Source: an uncultured Candidatus Saccharibacteria bacterium (GTDB lineage Bacteria > Patescibacteriota > Saccharimonadia > Saccharimonadales > UBA10212). Taken from it: 64,000 bases of DNA. The position numbers were made by a program, and so were the translations under genes. Shown piece by piece: positions 9,878 to 55,947 of this stretch; position 1 is the first letter of the stretch, and each line of letters begins with the position of its first letter. The notes below the pieces were generated by a model, which ran no database searches, had not been told where the DNA came from, and saw only the letters and a list, made by a program, of their open reading frames with translations. The stretch is taken from positions 475,234 to 539,233 of the forward strand of contig OZ246413.1 in assembly GCA_965231085.1 (NCBI GenBank), in the 5' to 3' direction.

Positions 9878-9947
9878 ATCAATTCTAGCTGATGTACTTG
9901 GCTAGTGCTTCGCCGCAAAATCTGCGACCCCGTTACCCGACGAAAGG

Positions 9948-10472
9948 ATGTGCCCTGTGCACGCACGCGGCATGGCAGTCTTCGACCCCAACCTGCCGCC
10001 CCACAAGTGCGGCTGGGAGGTCCAGAAGGCCCTCCAGACCCTCGACCTCAAGCCCATGGCAGCATTCGGGTTCGACTCGGCCAAGAAGGTGCTGCTGGTC
10101 GCGCACGTCGTGCGCGTCCCGGCCGAGGAGGTCTGGGCGCTCTACAGCACCCCGGTGTCCTACCACCTGCCCAGCAGGCTGGTGGTCGAGCCGGATGGCC
10201 TGGTGCTCGGGCCGGCCATGATCAGCCCGCTCCAGCAGGAGCCGTGCTTCGGCCTGCTGGAAATCTGGGGGCTCGAGCAGTTCGGCAACCCCGAGGAGCG
10301 GCCCAGCCAGCACCACCTGGTCGAGGTGCTCGAGGCCTACCACCAGATCACCCGGACGATCGGGCACTTCGACAGACGGCTGCCGCAGGACCAGCAGACC
10401 AGGTTCGTCGCCCTCGGGTCGATGATGCCCGACGGCATCCCGCTCGACAAGGGCCAGGCGGCGGTCAGCTAG
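9948..10472 (+). CDS. hypothetical protein, GC-rich cassette A
   Basis: 174-aa frame with almost every codon ending in G/C. AAAGGA lies at 9943-9948 with possible starts at GTG 9957 or ATG 9972. Overlapping ORFs in other frames lack this third-position bias. No family recognised. Confidence 0.7.
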   Translation: MCPVHARGMAVFDPNLPPHKCGWEVQKALQTLDLKPMAAFGFDSAKKVLLVAHVVRVPAEEVWALYSTPVSYHLPSRLVVEPDGLVLGPAMISPLQQEPCFGLLEIWGLEQFGNPEERPSQHHLVEVLEAYHQITRTIGHFDRRLPQDQQTRFVALGSMMPDGIPLDKGQAAVS

Positions 10473-10490
10473 GCCCACGGCCTAGCAAGC

Positions 10491-10549
10491 GGGGGCGCGC
10501 ACGTTCGCGCGCCCCCGCCCCCCAACTAACCCGCAAGGGTTATTTTTTT
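10491..10549 (+). terminator. tandem hairpins ending cassette A
   Basis: GGGGGCGCGC-loop-GCGCGCCCCC (10491-10516), then AACCC-GCAA-GGGTT followed by ATTTTTTT (10528-10549), a canonical intrinsic terminator on the plus strand. Confidence 0.6.
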
Positions 10550-11133
10550 ATACTTATTTTTGTATCTCTGTACAAATAAACAGCCGCTAGAATTGCAACG
10601 TCGCTTAATACTCCATATATCGGACGAACATACAAAACGCTAAGTGGTTTATTAACCAAGGCAAGGCTGCTAAATACATAAGCAATGGTGCCGATTAACC
10701 ATGGATAGGGCGCTTCAGATTTAGGATGTTTCTTTATCTTCAGGACAATCATTGATGTTGCGAAGACGTCTATCAAGACACTAAGCCAAATCGCGACCGA
10801 CGGGTCATTGGTTATGACCCAAGCAACGATGGTTGTAAGGCTTAAGGCCAGCAGGAAAATATCAAATTTTGAGGTATTGCGAGTGCCGTATTTGAATGAA
10901 AGACCGAGGATAACAAGATTACTTATTAAAAAAGTTAGCGAAATAAGAACCGATGCCCTTGCGCCCTTGGCGTACTGCGAAACAGTCACGATGCTATTCA
11001 TGATTGCAAATATAAACCAGCTAAATTGGTGTGGCTTTGTTCGACCAGATAAAATTGAGCGAATGTAGGGTATGGTGCAATAAATAGCCAAGATTACAGA
11101 TAGTAATCCGCAGAGATATACAAAAATATTCAT
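10540..11133 (-). CDS. polytopic membrane protein, family uncertain
   Basis: 197 aa, about six hydrophobic helices. The N-terminal segment IPYIRSILSGRTKPHQFSW is faintly PQ-loop-like. Confidence 0.55.
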   Translation of the reverse strand: MNIFVYLCGLLSVILAIYCTIPYIRSILSGRTKPHQFSWFIFAIMNSIVTVSQYAKGARASVLISLTFLISNLVILGLSFKYGTRNTSKFDIFLLALSLTTIVAWVITNDPSVAIWLSVLIDVFATSMIVLKIKKHPKSEAPYPWLIGTIAYVFSSLALVNKPLSVLYVRPIYGVLSDVAILAAVYLYRDTKISIKK

Positions 11134-23525: not shown

Positions 23526-23670
23526 TTTTAAAACCTGAAGGCTGACATTGATATTATTGTAGCTTTTATAGGTGTTATTGAAAAGAGAGGGAAGGTGAAA
23601 GCCCCCGGGGCGACCGCGCTATGTAAGCTGCGGGCCGCCCCAGATGTTGTTGTGCGCCAGTTGCTGCGAG

Positions 23671-23937
23671 TTAGCCCGTGGCGCTGATGGTGCGCTGCGG
23701 CACACGAAAGCACTCGAGAATCTGGCTGAGAGTCGACATCCCCGACTCGTTAAGCCTACCCCGCCAGCTGAAGATGTTCCTCACCCTATCCGGGTCACCC
23801 TCGTACATCTGGACCATCTCCCGAATCTGCTCGAAGGCATCCATCGGCTTGCCCGCCGTGAGATGAAGACTGATCTCCTCAATCAGCTCATCGGTACGCT
23901 CACCGCCGTAGACGTAAAAGCCACCATCAAGGGGCAT
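23671..23937 (-). CDS. 88-aa hypothetical protein, GC-rich cassette B
   Basis: GGAAGGAG lies 6-8 nt upstream of the ATG at 23937. Product MPLDGGFYVYGGERTDELIEEISLHLTAGKPMDAFEQIREMVQMYEGDPDRV..., family not recognised. The track ORF extends to 24012. Confidence 0.55.
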   Translation of the reverse strand: MPLDGGFYVYGGERTDELIEEISLHLTAGKPMDAFEQIREMVQMYEGDPDRVRNIFSWRGRLNESGMSTLSQILECFRVPQRTISATG

Positions 23938-23959
23938 TTTAATTCTCCTTCCCTCGTTT

Positions 23960-24092
23960 TGTGAATGTTCATCTGACTTGCCTGCCAGATGTATGGTAGG
24001 GGTAGCAACCACGGTTCGGCTGGTTGGCCTAGTTGCGTAGTTGGTTGCTACCCCGGCCCTCGAGTCAAACGGGAGTGAAACTCGAGGACCGG
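23960..24092 (-). promoter_or_regulatory. GC-rich structured 5' leader of cassette B
   Basis: Hairpins CCGGTCCTCGAG/CTCGAGGGCCGG (24053-24092; one G-U pair only on the minus strand), GGTAGCAACCA/TGGTTGCTACC (24001-24052) and CATCTG/CAGATG near the RBS. Confidence 0.4.
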
Positions 24093-24094
24093 AG

Positions 24095-24125
24095 CAACAA
24101 AAAACCGGACTGCTGTAGTCCGGTT
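24095..24125 (-). terminator. intrinsic terminator (minus strand) downstream of typA
   Basis: Minus strand reads CCGGACT-ACAGC-AGTCCGG followed by TTTTTTGTTG. Confidence 0.6.
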
Positions 24126-24278
24126 GTCGTTTTGCTTAAATTGTTGGTGGTTTAGCTTATGACTATTAGAACTACAGCAGCTGCTCGTCAATGACGAGTA
24201 GGCCGAGGCTCATAATCACACGCTTTGGTACCATAGCTAACATTTATACTATGCTAAAAACCTAATTGCAACTTTAGG

Positions 24279-30393: not shown

Positions 30394-30527
30394 AATATTA
30401 GCCTCCTTACATCTTTATAATACCCCTACAAAAGCTAATAATGTAGATGTTTCACGAATTTATAAAATTGATTCCGAGGGGGAGGCGCCTGGCTAGCTGC
30501 CAGACACCCCCCTTACTCGGCTTGCCG

Positions 30528-30929
30528 TCAGACGGGTGCCAAGACGATGCGCCCGGCACGACGCACGAAGCGATGACGCTGGCGACGGTGACGACGAGAG
30601 ATCGACGTCTGCGGACGCAGCTTGACGGTAGTCCAGGGGCTGTGGCCGTCCAACCACTCGAGCTGCCCGGTTACCGGGTTCATCCTGGTCACGTACTTGT
30701 AGCACTCGCAGCAGGTGCCGACCATCACACCATCGGCCCTGGTGACCCAGATCTTGGCGATGCAGCACGGCGAGACGAGCTTGCTGGCAGTCTCCAACGC
30801 CTTCACCGGGTTCGTGATCCCCTTGAAGCTCAGGGACGGACCTTTGCCTCGCTGCCTCTGCCGGCGCGCATGGGCCACCACGTAAGCGGCGGACCCTACC
30901 GGGTACTTACTCAGGTCACCTCGCTTCAT
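30528..30929 (-). CDS. 133-aa basic Cys-rich hypothetical protein, GC-rich cassette C
   Basis: GAGAGGAG lies upstream of the ATG at 30929. Third codon positions are mostly G/C. Product MKRGDLSKYPVGSAAYVVAHARRQRQRGKG...SPCC...TCCECYKY...RRHRRQRHRFVRRAGR. The antisense 177-aa ORF lacks this bias. Confidence 0.65.
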   Translation of the reverse strand: MKRGDLSKYPVGSAAYVVAHARRQRQRGKGPSLSFKGITNPVKALETASKLVSPCCIAKIWVTRADGVMVGTCCECYKYVTRMNPVTGQLEWLDGHSPWTTVKLRPQTSISRRHRRQRHRFVRRAGRIVLAPV

Positions 30930-30960
30930 GGGAAGCGCTCCTCTCAGTCGACTGAGGGAT

Positions 30961-30989
30961 ATTATAAAACGAAAACATAAATATCTCAA
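30961..30989 (-). promoter_or_regulatory. near-consensus promoter for cassette C
   Basis: Minus strand reads TTGAGA (30989-30984), 17 nt, TATAAT (30966-30961), followed by the palindrome CTCAGTCGACTGAG and the RBS. Confidence 0.45.
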
Positions 30990-45809: not shown

Positions 45810-46002
45810 TTGGTGATCCCAAGGGGAGTCGAGTCACCTTCGGCGACCCCCGAACTTCTCGATTGCCAACAAGTTGGTATCGGAAGATTCGTTTCCGAAC
45901 TGCCTTCTTGGCAGTTCTCACCCTATTGCCTCCGGCAATTAGTATTCGACGCTCAGTGAAATCAATCTAAAAAGCCCACCCTATCGGGTGAGCATTTTAG
46001 AT
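45810..46002 (-). repeat. 193-bp tRNA-3'-end-linked structured element, copy 1 (downstream of tRNA-Glu)
   Basis: 45810-45831 is identical to the last 22 nt of tRNA-Glu (46003-46024). The conserved core is shared with 55678-55788 (identical blocks ggcgacccccgaacttct, ttcgtttccgaactgcc, ggcagttctcaccc). No ORF. Confidence 0.75.
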
Positions 46003-46077
46003 TGGTGATCCCAAGGGGAGTCGAACCCCTATTGCCGGGATGAAAACCCGATTTCCTAACCATTAGAAGATGGGACC
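46003..46077 (-). tRNA. tRNA-Glu (anticodon UUC)
   Basis: Hand-folded cloverleaf: acceptor GGTCCCA/TGGGATC, anticodon arm TCGGG-TTTTCAT-CCCGG, T-arm AGGGG-TTCGACT-CCCCT, encoded CCA. Confidence 0.85.
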
Positions 46078-47193: not shown

Positions 47194-47276
47194 ATTAGTT
47201 CCTTTCTGAGGAAGTTAAATTAAGTTAAGTATAGTTGGAAAGAGACAAAACCAGATAGTTATTGAGCTTGAAAGTT

Positions 47277-47386: not shown

Positions 47387-48931
47387 TCACCCGCCGATGC
47401 AGTTGCCCATCTGGTCGGCCGGGGCGAACCCGATGGTGCCGTTCAGATGCCAGCACTGCTGGTTGCCTGAGCCGGTTGAACCGGGCGAGCCGCCCGCACC
47501 CACCGAGCCTCCGGGGCCGTTGCCGACCCCGAGGGACGGATTCTTGGGCTGCGGGGTGATGGGTGTCGTGGTGGTCGGCGGCGTGGTGGTCGGGGGAGAC
47601 TGGGTCGTCTCCGTGACCTGATTGTTGAACTTCAGGTCTCCCGACACGCCGACGATCCAGGTCCTACACAGCTGCCCGTCCTTGGGCTGCATGTGCATCC
47701 CTGCGAGCCAGTCGCTGCGCTCGCAGGCCTTGATCTTGGTGCCCTTCACGACGGGGATGGGAGTGCCATCGGCGTACGGAAGGATGTGGGGCTGGCAGTC
47801 GATAGCGGCGATGTTCGAGTCGAACTCGGCACCGTTGTCGACCGTGACCTTGAGCGGCAGCTTGATGCCGGCGTAGCCGGCGTAGTCGGCTGCCACTGCA
47901 GGCCCGGAGGCCTTGGTCAGGCACTTGCTCACTCCGGCGATGCCGGAGGTCGGGATGGCGGGGCTGGTCACGACTCCGCCCTTCTTCGGACGGTTGTAGA
48001 AGATCCAGTCGTTGCCTGCCCGATCGACGTGATCGAGCACCCAGTCCTTCGCCGGCACCTCGGACACGACACACTTGGCGCCGGCCGGGATACCGTAGTG
48101 GATGGGCTGACCGTTGTTCCAGCGGCGAACCTGCTGGTATGACGACGGGTTTGTGCAACGGATATCGAACAGGAAGTTGACGCGCCCGGTGAACCCGAGC
48201 GTGATCTTCCTGATCGAGCCACGGCTGGGCTTCGGAGCGGCCTTCGCTGGCCCGCAGTTGAGGGTGTTCTTGTTCCCCCCGACCTGCGAGCAGTTGTCGG
48301 CCGTGATGATGCCACCGCAGCCTGCGACGACTGCACCAGGGCTGTTGGTGACGGTCACCTTGCACCCCGCGGGGGGATTGCCTTGGGTGACCGTCTTAGC
48401 CGGTGCCGGTGCCGGCGTCGACTTCTTGACGGTGGGCGGCGGAGCCGCGACACGCGCGATCGGCACGACGTTCGAGCAGACCATCGCGAACTTCACGATG
48501 ATCTTGCCGCCGTCAGGCAGTACACCCGTGACCTTCCAGGCCGCGAGCGTCCCACCGGTGAGCCGACCGCTCACGAAGGTCTCGTGAGCGCCGGACATGA
48601 CGCCGAAGTAGCTGTTCTGCAGGATCCAGTCCTTGGTCGCCGACGAGGCACCCTTGATCAGGGCCGTCTGCTCGGCGGGGCTGAGACCCGCGCAGTGCAT
48701 CGCCCGCTTGCCGGCCGTGCTCGAGAGCGCGGAGTGAAGCTGGCTGGGGCTGTAGACCCCACCCTTGACGACTGCGTCGCCTCCGGGATGCCGCCAGTCG
48801 GCCTGTCGGACCTTGCAGTCGGCAGGAACACGGAACTGCGGGTTTGCCGCGGACGCGCTGAGCGCGCCGAACGCGGCGAGAATGGCCGCGACCACCAAAG
48901 CGGTGATTGCGGACTTCTTCGTAACGGCCAT
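47387..48931 (-). CDS. 514-aa secreted Cys-rich protein with a Pro/Thr linker, GC-rich cassette D
   Basis: GGAGGTGG lies 6 nt before the ATG at 48931. Signal peptide MAVTKKSAITALVVAAILAAFGALSASA. PPTTTPPTTTTP linker and a Gly-rich C-terminus. Several overlapping ORFs in other frames are high-GC artefacts. Confidence 0.75.
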   Translation of the reverse strand: MAVTKKSAITALVVAAILAAFGALSASAANPQFRVPADCKVRQADWRHPGGDAVVKGGVYSPSQLHSALSSTAGKRAMHCAGLSPAEQTALIKGASSATKDWILQNSYFGVMSGAHETFVSGRLTGGTLAAWKVTGVLPDGGKIIVKFAMVCSNVVPIARVAAPPPTVKKSTPAPAPAKTVTQGNPPAGCKVTVTNSPGAVVAGCGGIITADNCSQVGGNKNTLNCGPAKAAPKPSRGSIRKITLGFTGRVNFLFDIRCTNPSSYQQVRRWNNGQPIHYGIPAGAKCVVSEVPAKDWVLDHVDRAGNDWIFYNRPKKGGVVTSPAIPTSGIAGVSKCLTKASGPAVAADYAGYAGIKLPLKVTVDNGAEFDSNIAAIDCQPHILPYADGTPIPVVKGTKIKACERSDWLAGMHMQPKDGQLCRTWIVGVSGDLKFNNQVTETTQSPPTTTPPTTTTPITPQPKNPSLGVGNGPGGSVGAGGSPGSTGSGNQQCWHLNGTIGFAPADQMGNCIGG

Positions 48932-49254
48932 CGAAACCACCTCCTAGGTGATCGCGGTTTGTCGGGTGGCCTACCCGATCTGCTAGGCTTAGCAAGACAC
49001 AAAACCAATAAATAATTACGGGCTTGGTGTCTTGCTAGACTCTAAAACAGATGAACATTGGTAGTCGGTTATGTGGGTATTAAAACCCAATAACTATCTA
49101 GTTTGCTCTAATTTAGTATTTGTTATCTAAATCAGGTACAAACAGTCTGAATTGTTAAGGGATTCCCTCCTCCACCTCTGTGGCGAAGATGACCATATTC
49201 TAACAGATGTGAATACTTTTGTCAATATGCTTGTGTTTTTTAAGATGTTTATAA

Positions 49255-49995
49255 ATGAAAAGGCCCTCCGGGTGGAGGGCCTAGGGCTGTGGGGAGCGCT
49301 ACAAAGCGCTGCGCCCAAGCGGGAGCTTCGTATCCGAGCACGCTTATCGACGAATGCCGACCAGGTGCTCTAGGAGAGCTCTACCAAAGTTGGTCGAAGA
49401 CGCGAGGGGGCCGTACCTCTGTGGTGTACGGCCCCCTATCGGGCTGTGGGCGCTGATGATTTGCGCCCTTGGCTGCAAGGGATTTAGCGTCCCCGCAGCT
49501 TCTTGCCATGAGCCATACTATCTGCTCATGAAACTTCGCTGACCAGGGTTATGCCACACCCTGTTGCGTAGTCAGCGAAGGGTGCCAAAGTGAAGGCTGC
49601 GTAACTCCGCCGGTTGAGCTTTCGCGCCATGGAGCCGCTTTGACACCATTGTCGGAGACAGCTCCGCCAGGACTGCCTCCGACACCTTTCGCCCAGTGTG
49701 ATTCGGTCCCACCACTACTCGACACTATCGAGCTGGAGACTGTCTTTACCACACTGGGCGAACTTATGCTGCAAATATGTGGGCTGAATGACCTCCCGTA
49801 TCATCCAGCCCGGTCGGGGACTACCCCTTCTGTCACGGCACGAGGCTTGTTGCGCAACTACCCCGTACTGAATCGAACGAAATAACGAAAAGCGGTGCCT
49901 GCAAGTTACAGCCTCTCGGCTTTTGGGAGAACTCGCCCGGCCCCCAGCTTTGAAACACTGGACGCTCTCTGAACGCTACTTTTCTTCGTTCGACC
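49255..49995 (-). ncRNA. candidate large structured non-coding RNA (family unknown; strand tentative)
   Basis: GC-enriched with no ORF over 81 aa in any frame. Many perfect helices (49534-43/49571-80, 49406-16/49426-36, 49692-700/49750-58). Minus-strand terminator AGGCCCTCC-ACCC-GGAGGGCCT followed by TTTTCATTT at 49261-49282. Confidence 0.45.
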
Positions 49996-50182
49996 GACAT
50001 TTTTACTATGAGCAGACAGTAAGACATTTTGTCCTAGTGTCTGCTCATAGCATTGTTTTCTTCGACCAAAAAGTTAAGTAACTCTCAAGGATTAAAAAAT
50101 TAATATCCTTAAGCCGCATTAGAATATACAACATCCCAACTCTTTAGGCAATACCCTCTAGTGACTTGCGGCTGATATACTA

Positions 50183-51547
50183 ATGCTTATGAAAATCGCG
50201 ATTGTCGGCTGGGGGGTAGAAGGTCAAAGCGCTTATAAGTATTTTGGCCCGGACCACGATTATTTAATCGTTAACGAGGAGCCTCGCACCGACTTTCCGA
50301 CCGCAACTTCAAAAGTTAAAATCCAGTTTGTAAATAAGCCAAGAACGCCCGGAATCACCAGCAACGTCGCCGATACCAGCTATTTAGAAGGTATAAATAA
50401 TTGCGACAAAATCGTATATACTCCTACGTCACGCAAAGCTTTAGAAAAAGTCTTTAAACCAGATGACGATATCTGGCAAAAGTGTACTACCAACCTGGCT
50501 ATTTTCTTTGAAAATATAAAAACAAAAAATATCATTGGGGTAACCGGCACTAAAGGTAAGGGCACTACCTCTACTCTTATCTATAAGATGTTACAAGCTA
50601 GCGGTAAAAAAGTATTCCTCGGCGGCAACATTGGCAACAGCCCCTTAGATTTTATTCATGAAGTCACAGAAAACGACTGGGTTGTTATAGAGATGAGCAG
50701 CTTCCAGCTGTATAAGTTCCCCTATTCACCGCATATTGCTGTTTGTCTGATGATAATACCCGAGCATCTGGATTGGCATTCTGATTTCGAGGAGTATGTT
50801 GAGGCAAAATCTAATATCTTTAAACATCAAAAGCCTGAGGATTTTGCTATTTATTTTGAGAACAACAAGGACTCGGCCCATATCGCCGGTGAATCGGTCG
50901 GGAGAAAGATTCCCTATTTTGAACCACCGGGAGCGTTTGTCCGCGACGAAGGGATTATTAGTGTTGGCCAAGATGAAACAGAAGTAATATCAACCCGTGA
51001 AATTAAACTAATAGGCCAACACAATTTACAAAATGTTTGTGCCGCTATCACCGCTGTTTGGCAGATAGCCCAAGATGTTAGAGCAATCAAAAGTGTATTA
51101 ACAACATTTACTGGTCTAGAGCACCGGTTAGAGTTCGTCCGTGAGCTAAATGGAGTCAAATACTACGACGACTCCTTCGGTACTACTCCGGACACAGCCA
51201 TTGTTGCCCTTCGCTCTTTTAGCCAGCCAGTTATCTTGATAGTCGGCGGATCAGATAAAGGCGCCAGCTTTGAGACTCTAACAGATGAAATCGTAAAAGA
51301 TAGGGTGTCTGCTGCTATAACTATCGGTAATACGGGGCCGATCATAGCTGAGCAGCTTAGCAAGAAAGGTTTTAAAAATATTATTCCGGGGTTAACAACT
51401 ATGGATGAGATTGTTCAGGCAGCTCGGGGAGCAGCAAAGCCAGGCAGTATCGTCCTCTTGTCCACCGGCTGCGCTAGTTTTGGTATGTTTAAAGATTACA
51501 AGGACCGGGGTGATCAGTTTAAGCGAGCGGTCTTAACACTCTCTTAA
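50183..51547 (+). CDS. murD: UDP-N-acetylmuramoylalanine--D-glutamate ligase
   Basis: Mur ligase P-loop GVTGTKGKGTT, 454 aa. An extended -10 (TGATATACT) lies at 50173-50181. Confidence 0.9.
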   Translation: MLMKIAIVGWGVEGQSAYKYFGPDHDYLIVNEEPRTDFPTATSKVKIQFVNKPRTPGITSNVADTSYLEGINNCDKIVYTPTSRKALEKVFKPDDDIWQKCTTNLAIFFENIKTKNIIGVTGTKGKGTTSTLIYKMLQASGKKVFLGGNIGNSPLDFIHEVTENDWVVIEMSSFQLYKFPYSPHIAVCLMIIPEHLDWHSDFEEYVEAKSNIFKHQKPEDFAIYFENNKDSAHIAGESVGRKIPYFEPPGAFVRDEGIISVGQDETEVISTREIKLIGQHNLQNVCAAITAVWQIAQDVRAIKSVLTTFTGLEHRLEFVRELNGVKYYDDSFGTTPDTAIVALRSFSQPVILIVGGSDKGASFETLTDEIVKDRVSAAITIGNTGPIIAEQLSKKGFKNIIPGLTTMDEIVQAARGAAKPGSIVLLSTGCASFGMFKDYKDRGDQFKRAVLTLS

Positions 51548-55677: not shown

Positions 55678-55870
55678 TGGAGGGCCAGGCGGGACTCGGT
55701 CGCCTCCGGCGACCCCCGAACTTCTACCTAGCAAACAAGTTTGCAGGTGAAGGTTCGTTTCCGAACTGCCCCGGCAGTTCTCACCCCCGACGTTCTTTTT
55801 GATATGTCGTGGAAACGAGCCCGCTGCTCATGCCAATGAAAAGACCCCACGCAAGGTGAGGTCATTTCAC
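55678..55870 (-). repeat. 193-bp tRNA-3'-end-linked structured element, copy 2 (downstream of tRNA-Lys)
   Basis: 55678-55698 is identical to the last 21 nt of tRNA-Lys (55871-55891), again at an offset of exactly 193 bp. The core is homologous to 45832-45923 with compensatory helix changes. No ORF. Confidence 0.75.
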
Positions 55871-55947
55871 TGGAGGGCCAGGCGGGACTCGAACCCGCGA
55901 CATTCTGCTTAAGAGGCAGACGCTCTAACCAGCTGAGCTACTGGCCC
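55871..55947 (-). tRNA. tRNA-Lys (anticodon CUU)
   Basis: Hand-folded: acceptor GGGCCAG/CTGGCCC, anticodon arm TCTGC-CTCTTAA-GCAGA, T-arm GCGGG-TTCGAGT-CCCGC, encoded CCA. Confidence 0.85.

Follow-up and report, generated by a model that had tools for sequence, protein, structure and literature searches.

Introduction

Large structured RNAs with no assigned function are seldom found in bacteria, and time and again they have been a source of new biochemistry. Among them, OLE, GOLLD, ROOL and raiA are hundreds of nucleotides (nt) long, enriched in guanine plus cytosine (GC), structured, free of an open reading frame (ORF) and equipped with their own promoter and terminator. Here, we describe a candidate non-coding RNA (ncRNA) gene with the same properties, which adjoins murD in a 64,000-nt stretch of DNA from an uncultured Saccharibacteria bacterium. 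This whole stretch is called the window throughout the paper. Like the candidate, the OLE, GOLLD, ROOL and raiA RNAs emerged from the logic of GC-rich intergenic regions. In contrast to the candidate, they possess conserved nucleotides and covarying multi-stem junctions and are detectable by Rfam, whereas the candidate RNA has no Rfam match and no shared sequence and is predicted to form a linear chain of local hairpins without consistent long-range helices.

A second group of comparable molecules are the sponge RNAs of the CsrB/RsmZ type, which carry a repeated loop motif, GGA. Many short hairpins, weak sequence conservation and repeated structural units are common to them and the candidate RNA; the latter, however, is 2-3 times longer, much more GC-rich and without an over-represented k-mer or loop motif. 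By analogy, the candidate may work most like the large GC-rich intergenic ncRNAs or like these multi-hairpin sponge RNAs. Hairpins that keep their structure while their sequence varies, at a locus of cassette turnover, also recall integron attC arrays (CALIN) and REP/BIME elements, but the candidate array has no nearby integrase, shared cores or intervening cassettes, and its hairpins form no repeat family within the 64 kilobases (kb). The Neisseria pilE system uses a short G-quadruplex motif with a small cis-acting transcript and needs silent donor copies. It offers the analogy of a structure-forming, GC-rich non-coding unit upstream of a hypervariable surface-protein gene, although donor-like cassette repeats were absent from this window. 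In Plasmodium falciparum, 15 highly homologous GC-rich ncRNA genes are located beside var genes (PMC5175341). GC-rich ncRNA genes beside hypervariable surface-protein genes in an AT-richer genome constitute an analogy of genomic logic only; the Plasmodium members are eukaryotic and homologous, whereas those described here are unalignable. In Rfam and the literature searched, no such RNA was described for Saccharibacteria, Patescibacteria or other members of the Candidate Phyla Radiation.

A candidate RNA gene on the minus strand next to murD

A first inspection of the bare sequence (the sequence-only reading) had proposed a large ncRNA at positions 49255-49995. The analysis upheld a large minus-strand ncRNA of no known family: no Rfam model matched, a coding signal was missing, the same layout was found in seven other loci and the strand features agreed in 8 of 8 full-length units. 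We lean, at slightly better than even confidence, toward an independent gene on the minus strand for a long and very stable ncRNA built as a chain of hairpins, with its own promoter and terminator, present as an accessory gene in a variable slot. Such an RNA would represent a new and unusual class of ncRNA. Beyond the first reading, the family was found to be defined by position, composition and density of structure and not by conserved sequence.

The GC content of the stretch 49200-49900 (0.56-0.60) exceeded the genome background as noted earlier (56-60% versus ~44%, the window mean). The poverty in ORFs was found again, with a longest ORF of 81 aa (49640-49885, plus strand), but did not keep its weight, being not unusual for such a composition. 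The longest stop-free run of 117 codons matched dinucleotide shuffles (115 +/- 28), and the lack of ORFs alone is therefore unremarkable. The stronger evidence for a non-coding nature is the absent period-3 signal, with a power of 1.8 in the region versus 39-105 in the adjacent gene of 67% GC and 8 in murD. A Pfam search with ten ORF fragments of the region gave no match at E <= 1.

All helices listed by the sequence-only reading were present at their positions, the principal ones being given in Table 1. Five perfect stems of at least 8 base pairs (bp) were counted versus 0.56 +/- 0.74 in 500 dinucleotide shuffles (maximum 3), and three of at least 10 bp versus a shuffle mean of 0.04. Compared to shuffles, the minimum free energy (MFE) of the 741-nt region corresponded to z-scores of -9.2 (minus strand) and -5.8 (plus strand). 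In 500-nt windows the region reached -8 to -12 on the minus strand against a 64-kb background of -0.72 +/- 1.85, making it the most structured 500-nt stretch within the window. Other GC-rich islands (0.63-0.69 GC) were located at 47387-48940, 9905-10579 and 30447-30989, and such islands also beat shuffles on one strand (z = -8.1 at 47450-47949; z = -6.7 at 30460-30959).

The first-noted region was real, but the unit turned out to be longer, reaching ~50116 on the right. Its 5' end is predicted to follow the -10 box by ~7 nt. It opens with an AT-rich 5' portion, which holds two hairpins and falls outside the first-noted coordinates; a GC-rich chain of ~18 hairpins and the terminator follow. In total, the predicted fold lists 21 hairpins with 289 pairs over 845 nt. 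Both transcription signals named earlier were recovered by scanners, namely the minus-strand promoter TTGCCT-17-TATATT (50151-50123) and the minus-strand intrinsic terminator (49282-49261). The -10 box of the promoter overlaps a plus-strand TAGAAT, which may serve the divergent murD. Overall, the locus shows what is generally expected of an independent ncRNA gene, its own promoter and terminator on one strand (both as consensus-level matches) and no coding signal.

The Rfam search gave no match to the region. Using Rfam 15 at the gathering score, only the transfer-messenger RNA (tmRNA) and five transfer RNAs (tRNAs) were found in the whole window. With permissive filters nothing below E = 0.24 was obtained for 49000-50250, the best match being a c-di-GMP-II-GAG fragment at this E-value (21.8 bits versus a gathering score of 40). 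Rfam also gave no match to the syntenic segments of L084 and L085, two related loci. As even the permissive search was negative, RNase P, OLE, GOLLD, ROOL, HEARO and group I/II introns are absent. The dismissal of RNase P, made by eye in the first reading, was borne out by the lack of a model match at the gathering score in the window, at E <= 10 in 49000-50250 and in the L084 and L085 segments. For raiA and other large ncRNAs of Rfam no covariance-model match was found in the window, L084 and L085. A group I/II intron was also rejected on the basis of the missing Rfam match and the lack of an ORF with a Pfam domain in the region.

Further candidate identities were tried and rejected. An integron attC array or CALIN found no support in a shared core motif, the hairpins being contiguous without cassettes and no integrase being found among the scanned neighbours, although no dedicated attC model was applied. 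REP/BIME or MITE repeats were dismissed since no copy of any hairpin occurred elsewhere within the 64-kb window, and a sponge of the CsrB/RsmZ type since neither the loop inventory nor k-mer enrichment revealed a repeated motif. The template of a diversity-generating retroelement was rejected as well: no repeat between 49255-49995 and the cassette gene and no excess complementarity to the own cassette were detected, although no search for a reverse transcriptase covered the whole window. Distant-mode blastn against phage and plasmid collections showed no similarity to the region, and blastn and nhmmer searches of 80 GTDB Saccharibacteria murD loci yielded no homolog.

Look-alike units in related loci

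The closest available relatives were reached via MurD homologs, which led to four contigs; the MurD identities to the window were 82% in L084, 76% in L085 and 69% in L086. Both L084 and L085 align to the window across murD and across the promoter/leader region (49146-49272). Between these anchors a gene-call-free, GC-rich stretch (0.55-0.67) of ~0.8 kb in L084 and ~1.0 kb in L085 was found; using blastn, neither stretch was alignable to the window. On the strand equivalent to the minus strand of the window z-scores of -8.4 (L084) and -13.5 (L085) were determined, compared to -5.0 and -8.6 on the other strand. L086 was without such a segment. Screening all fetched loci for GC-rich, non-periodic and ORF-poor stretches picked the window, L084, L085 and, at the same position, L009, whose MurD is 52% identical; three further loci also passed.

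A scan of JGI metagenomes for a 25-nt block of the downstream leader yielded 29 loci. The cassette side had a GC content of 0.60-0.70 in all of them, and on the other side 400-800 nt at 0.55-0.67 GC were present in a subset (L089, L095, L109, L110, L115, and L100 and L099, which are cut off). All segments of 0.58 GC or more that were folded (seven loci, the window among them) were non-periodic with z-scores of -4.6 to -11, while loci without GC enrichment mostly had z-scores of ~0 to -3 (L088, L096 and L107 near -5). A metagenome scan with the 5'-leader pattern TCCACCTCTNTGGC... gave no match. Altogether, seven other full-length loci hold a GC-rich, hairpin-dense, non-periodic segment of 0.65-1.1 kb in the same slot, and three cut-off contigs look alike. 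Same-slot look-alikes thus exist in at least seven, and probably ten, genomes of other soil Saccharibacteria. The eight full-length units used below are those of the window, L084, L085, L009, L089, L095 (= L104), L109 and L110; the units interrupted by contig ends are L115 (5' end missing), L100 and L099.

The transcription signals recurred at both ends. Six of the full-length units (window, L084, L009, L089, L095 and L110) carried TTGCNN-16/17-TATAWT at their far boundary, the two exceptions being L109 with TTTACT-17-TAAAAT and L085 with a -10 box only. At the near boundary a GC-rich terminator hairpin with a U-run was present in 8 of 8 full-length units, and in 9 of 10 when the cut-off L115 and L100 were included (L115 has the terminator; L100 is atypical with the A-run first). 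The stem sequences of these terminators are unrelated between loci. They are followed, after 45-60 nt and in the same orientation, by the conserved cassette promoter TTGACA-17-TAnAnT. From promoter to terminator the units measure 650-1080 nt, with ~15-27 local GC-rich hairpins each. GUGAUGCGCC was observed within ~35 nt of the predicted start in 3 of 8 units (L009, L089 and L095) and was absent in the window, L084 and L085. It could be the mark of a subfamily, or else a site of processing or binding. A helix closing the 5' and 3' ends (panhandle; 11 bp in the window, 50059-50069 with 49390-49400) was significant in the window and L110 only and not in the other six units, and was rejected as a common feature.

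The strand assignment is based on predicted folds of the eight full-length units. The MFE of the sense strand was below that of the antisense strand in all of them, by 9-60 kcal/mol. G-U pairs amounted to 209 in the sense versus 140 in the antisense folds and were more frequent in sense in every unit, a difference to which base composition contributes. GNRA/UNCG loops accounted for 11 of 43 sense but 0 of 39 antisense tetraloops, with a chance expectation of ~2 (a share of 12/256 of such tetramers). Judged from these models, both G-U pairs and GNRA/UNCG loops make sense for an RNA and not for DNA hairpins.

Sequence turnover between the units

Flanking genes and the leader are alignable across the loci (68-78%), but the window, L084 and L085 have a single k-mer of 9 nt or more in common, TGTATATTC, which is the -10 box. 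MAFFT alignments of the units were too poor for covariation analysis. Recognisable homology was restricted to the window and L085, which have seven hairpins in common, in an unchanged order across the ~250 nt at the 5' end (54-75% identity), and one 3' hairpin. One short hairpin of the shared set is identical (GGGGUAGUCCCC). In the first long hairpin the outer arms UAUGAGCAGA/UCUGCUCAUA are kept in L085, and the inner ~10 bp are wholly different in both arms, yet paired. Using RNAalifold, 6 of 35 pairs showed double changes, on a poor alignment. From these comparisons, the window and L085 units appear to be orthologous with structural turnover. AUGAGCAGA was observed three times in the candidate RNA, in both arms of the first hairpin (50004-50052) and in a later hairpin (49508-49533), and the first hairpin of L085 has kept it as well; possibly it represents a palindrome for protein binding.

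Leader, cassette and the variable slot

On the minus strand the candidate RNA is followed by a strong promoter (49225-49197), a 250-nt AT-rich leader, a 517-aa gene and a 274-aa LPXTG gene, with murD located divergently on the plus strand (Table 1). Genes adjoining the locus are murD, murI, folD, sortase and PGK. Homologs of MurD (encoded at 50183-51547, plus strand) were found solely in Saccharibacteria/Patescibacteria, with a best match of 63% identity among 185,579 GTDB species representatives; identical copies occur on an NCBI contig and in Logan assemblies.

Promoter and leader precede GC-rich (0.60-0.70) secreted-protein genes, which differ between the 15 distinct loci. The 25-nt block AAANCCCNATAACTATCTAGTTTGC lies inside the leader (49082-49106, plus strand) and is identical or near-identical in the window, L086, L083 and L009. 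An inverted second copy is found at 47243-47272 upstream of the LPXTG-protein gene, and inverted blocks of 25-30 nt bracket the GC-rich cassette in the window, L086 and L102. In a second type of context the block is located ~35 nt upstream of a conserved LPXTG-protein gene. Near-invariant leader blocks are CAUCCUCGC...AAGAGGUGGA, CUUAACAAUU and GUUUG...GCAAACUAGAUAGUUAUNGGGNUUUAA...AACCGACUAC; pairs within the leader were invariant and no covariation was obtained. The leader block could be an operator, a structured 5' untranslated region (UTR) or a cassette boundary. Scanning viral contigs for the leader motif gave no match. The 517-aa gene has a GC content at third codon positions of ~0.86 and just three homologs among 5.8 billion proteins, and thus no obvious actinobacterial donor.

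The far flank of the unit is murD in the window, L084, L085, L009 and L109, and another gene in L089, L095 and L110 (a histidine-kinase gene in L110). Because of this difference, the unit travels with the leader-cassette module and not with murD. The RNA-less slots of L082, L086, L091 and L111 hold an unrelated ORF of 80-115 aa with ordinary GC content and its own terminator, and in L113 the cassette promoter is directly beside murD with the slot empty. Since unrelated small ORFs take the place of the RNA, the slot is a hotspot of gene turnover. A tie of RNA presence to the family of the cassette protein was rejected, as 4 of 5 families mix RNA-plus and RNA-minus loci. An antisense RNA or mimic of the downstream leader was also rejected (longest matches 8-12 nt, inconsistent between loci), as was an antisense RNA to the own cassette mRNA, with matches no better than to the cassettes of other loci.

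Table 1. Coordinates of the candidate RNA, its predicted parts and neighbouring features (window positions unless a related locus is named).
Feature	Position	Strand	Remarks
Candidate RNA-bearing stretch	49255-49995		as first noted, adjoining murD; source order Saccharimonadales
Candidate ncRNA, ~855 nt	49261..50116	minus	fold, no coding signal, no Rfam family
Putative sigma-70-like promoter of the candidate RNA (TTGCCT, 17 nt, TATATT)	50123..50151	minus	scan; equivalents in relatives
First long hairpin, 22 pairs	50004..50052	minus	inverted repeat
GC-rich hairpin array	49283..49995	minus	first-noted region minus terminator
Helix, 13 bp	49688-700 / 49750-62		
Helix	49650-61 / 49673-84		
Helix, 10 bp	49534-43 / 49571-80		perfect
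Helix, 12 bp	49405-16 / 49426-37		
Predicted intrinsic terminator, AGGCCCUCC-ACCC-GGAGGGCCU then UUUUCAUUU	49252..49282	minus	scanner
Cassette promoter (TTGACA, 17 nt, TAGAAT, upstream TG)	49197..49225	minus	scan; conserved in 15 loci; separate from the RNA
Conserved AT-rich leader (5' UTR) of the cassette gene, ~250 nt	48941..49190	minus	
517-aa secreted-protein gene, 67% GC	47387..48940	minus	variable cassette
Small slot ORFs of related loci	L082 2908-3156; L086 2890-3144		between cassette promoter and murD

Weighing of the interpretations

We are aware of several observations that weigh against an independent ncRNA gene. Among the eight units, trimmed of promoter and terminator, no similarity was found by blastn and tblastx, and no k-mer or motif was enriched across them. 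The absence of shared sequence is atypical for a functional RNA and fits a class of unrelated inserts equally well. Covariation with statistical support was not obtained, the window and L085 being the only units that could be partly aligned. Hairpin-wise comparison of the window and L085 counted 57 unchanged, 9 changed-but-paired, 20 broken and 15 gapped pairs, based on two sequences; of the 9 changed-but-paired, 5 were changed on one side and 4 on both. L084, although the closer relative, has nothing in common with the window, in contrast to the more distant L085, which indicates that units were replaced or exchanged and not only inherited. Roughly every second locus that has this leader lacks the RNA and shows an unrelated small ORF in its place. 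The neighbouring GC-rich coding cassette also beats shuffles (z = -5.1 for a 741-nt piece; -1.5 to -8.1 for 500-nt windows of its sense strand). Rather than a lone outlier, the region is thus the most extreme case of a local trend, and part of the fold signal may stem from whatever makes the islands GC-rich. A terminator could arise trivially where the last hairpin of a hairpin-rich insert meets the T-rich conserved flank. Finally, the special-tetraloop bonus of ViennaRNA may inflate the tetraloop count, with the same bonus applied to the antisense folds.

Of four alternative explanations we gave the most weight, at a still low probability, to a cis-acting unit, in which transcription matters together with its termination right before the cassette promoter and beside the promoter of the divergent murD (as insulator, source of supercoiling or modulator of read-through into the surface-protein gene), and the RNA product has no role. 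Its constant place 45-60 nt upstream of the conserved cassette promoter, in the same orientation, would suit such a unit, as would the unconstrained sequence and the other terminated small genes in RNA-less slots, according to which any terminated unit may suffice. The strand-specific enrichment of GNRA/UNCG loops and G-U pairs, in contrast, indicates selection on the stability of RNA hairpins, a dense GC-rich structure of 650-1080 nt exceeds the needs of an insulator, and in L113 the cassette promoter stands beside murD with nothing between. That the segment is a non-functional GC-rich insert, horizontally acquired or GC-biased hairpin-rich DNA tolerated in the slot, ranks next and appears improbable to us. 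Missing sequence conservation, patchy presence, the over-structured GC-rich islands nearby and the lack of homologs in phages, plasmids and 80 GTDB murD loci are what one would expect of it. It is hard to reconcile with the same architecture in seven other full-length loci of otherwise compact genomes, with promoter and terminator exactly at the two ends, z-scores down to -13.5, strand-consistent RNA features in 8 of 8 units and a hairpin order kept between the window and L085 despite saturation-level divergence.

An array of hairpins acting at the level of DNA, as single-stranded or cruciform recombination sites or as footprints of cassette exchange (attC-like, REP/BIME-like), would explain why slot and cassette content differ between close relatives, why hairpins recalling attC sites keep structure and vary in sequence, and why inverted copies of the 25-30-nt block bracket the GC-rich cassette. 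We regard it as doubtful, and it follows the non-functional insert in weight: no recombinase or integrase was found among the scanned neighbours, the hairpins form no repeat family within 64 kb, an R'/R''-type shared core or other motif is missing, the leader motif had no match in viral contigs, and promoter, terminator, G-U asymmetry and tetraloops point to RNA. The least likely explanation, to which we assigned a very small probability, is a decayed gene or one or more fast-evolving genes for small proteins. The ORFs of 80-115 aa in RNA-less slots and the 81-aa ORF of the region itself speak for this possibility. Against it stand the period-3 power of 1.8 versus 39-105 in the GC-rich gene and 8 in murD, negative tblastx/tblastn comparisons among the eight units and to the L082 ORF, the missing Pfam match and the fact that gene callers left the L084 and L085 segments empty.

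Proposed mode of action and significance

In the preferred reading as an independent ncRNA gene, transcription would start at a sigma-70-type promoter, run along the minus strand to the intrinsic terminator and yield an RNA that accumulates. Selection would act on hairpin stability, GC content and transcription signals rather than on sequence. The RNA could act via its shape or abundance, most plausibly in trans; such a role is favoured because the stabilising loops of RNA type and the G-U pairs point to selection on the product. As a guess of low confidence, it might serve as a nuclease-resistant scaffold or decoy for a factor binding hairpins or double-stranded RNA. The gene would be accessory, with lineages acquiring, losing and exchanging it. 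Its slot lies directly in front of the promoter and leader driving hypervariable GC-rich secreted or surface-protein genes in a soil subclade of Saccharimonadales. A more far-reaching reading, which we consider unlikely, combines RNA, leader and cassette into a variation module of episymbiotic Saccharibacteria, with the RNA under diversifying selection and exchanged horizontally. The RNA might then be a decoy or shield in the conflict with phages or the actinobacterial host, or a trans-acting controller of surface proteins. If this module exists, it would provide a new kind of fast-evolving bacterial RNA with its function in the hairpin architecture and not in the sequence.

What the candidate retains is its position and length, its GC enrichment and density of hairpins, and both promoter and terminator; all sequence similarity is lost. 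It is linked to a hypervariable surface-protein locus in an obligate epibiont with a streamlined genome and appears to be exchanged between lineages. If the reading as an ncRNA gene is correct, RNA discovery based on homology and covariation would be blind to such RNAs, and the candidate would give access to the biology of host interaction or defence in a clade that is not in cultivation.

Other observations in the window

The second sizeable gap between ORFs (23526-24278) gave a z-score of -6.0 on the minus strand and no Rfam match. It holds a probable ORF of ~88 aa (within 23671-24012, minus strand), which is preceded by a Shine-Dalgarno sequence and a structured upstream region of ~260 nt. 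At 45810-46077 and 55678-55947 two minus-strand tRNA genes were found, each with an exact second copy of its 3'-terminal 21-23 nt ~192 nt downstream. A 72-nt segment of 82% identity is common to the DNA enclosed by the copies at both places. The arrangement resembles a small element that has entered at the 3' ends of tRNA genes with an att-like duplication.

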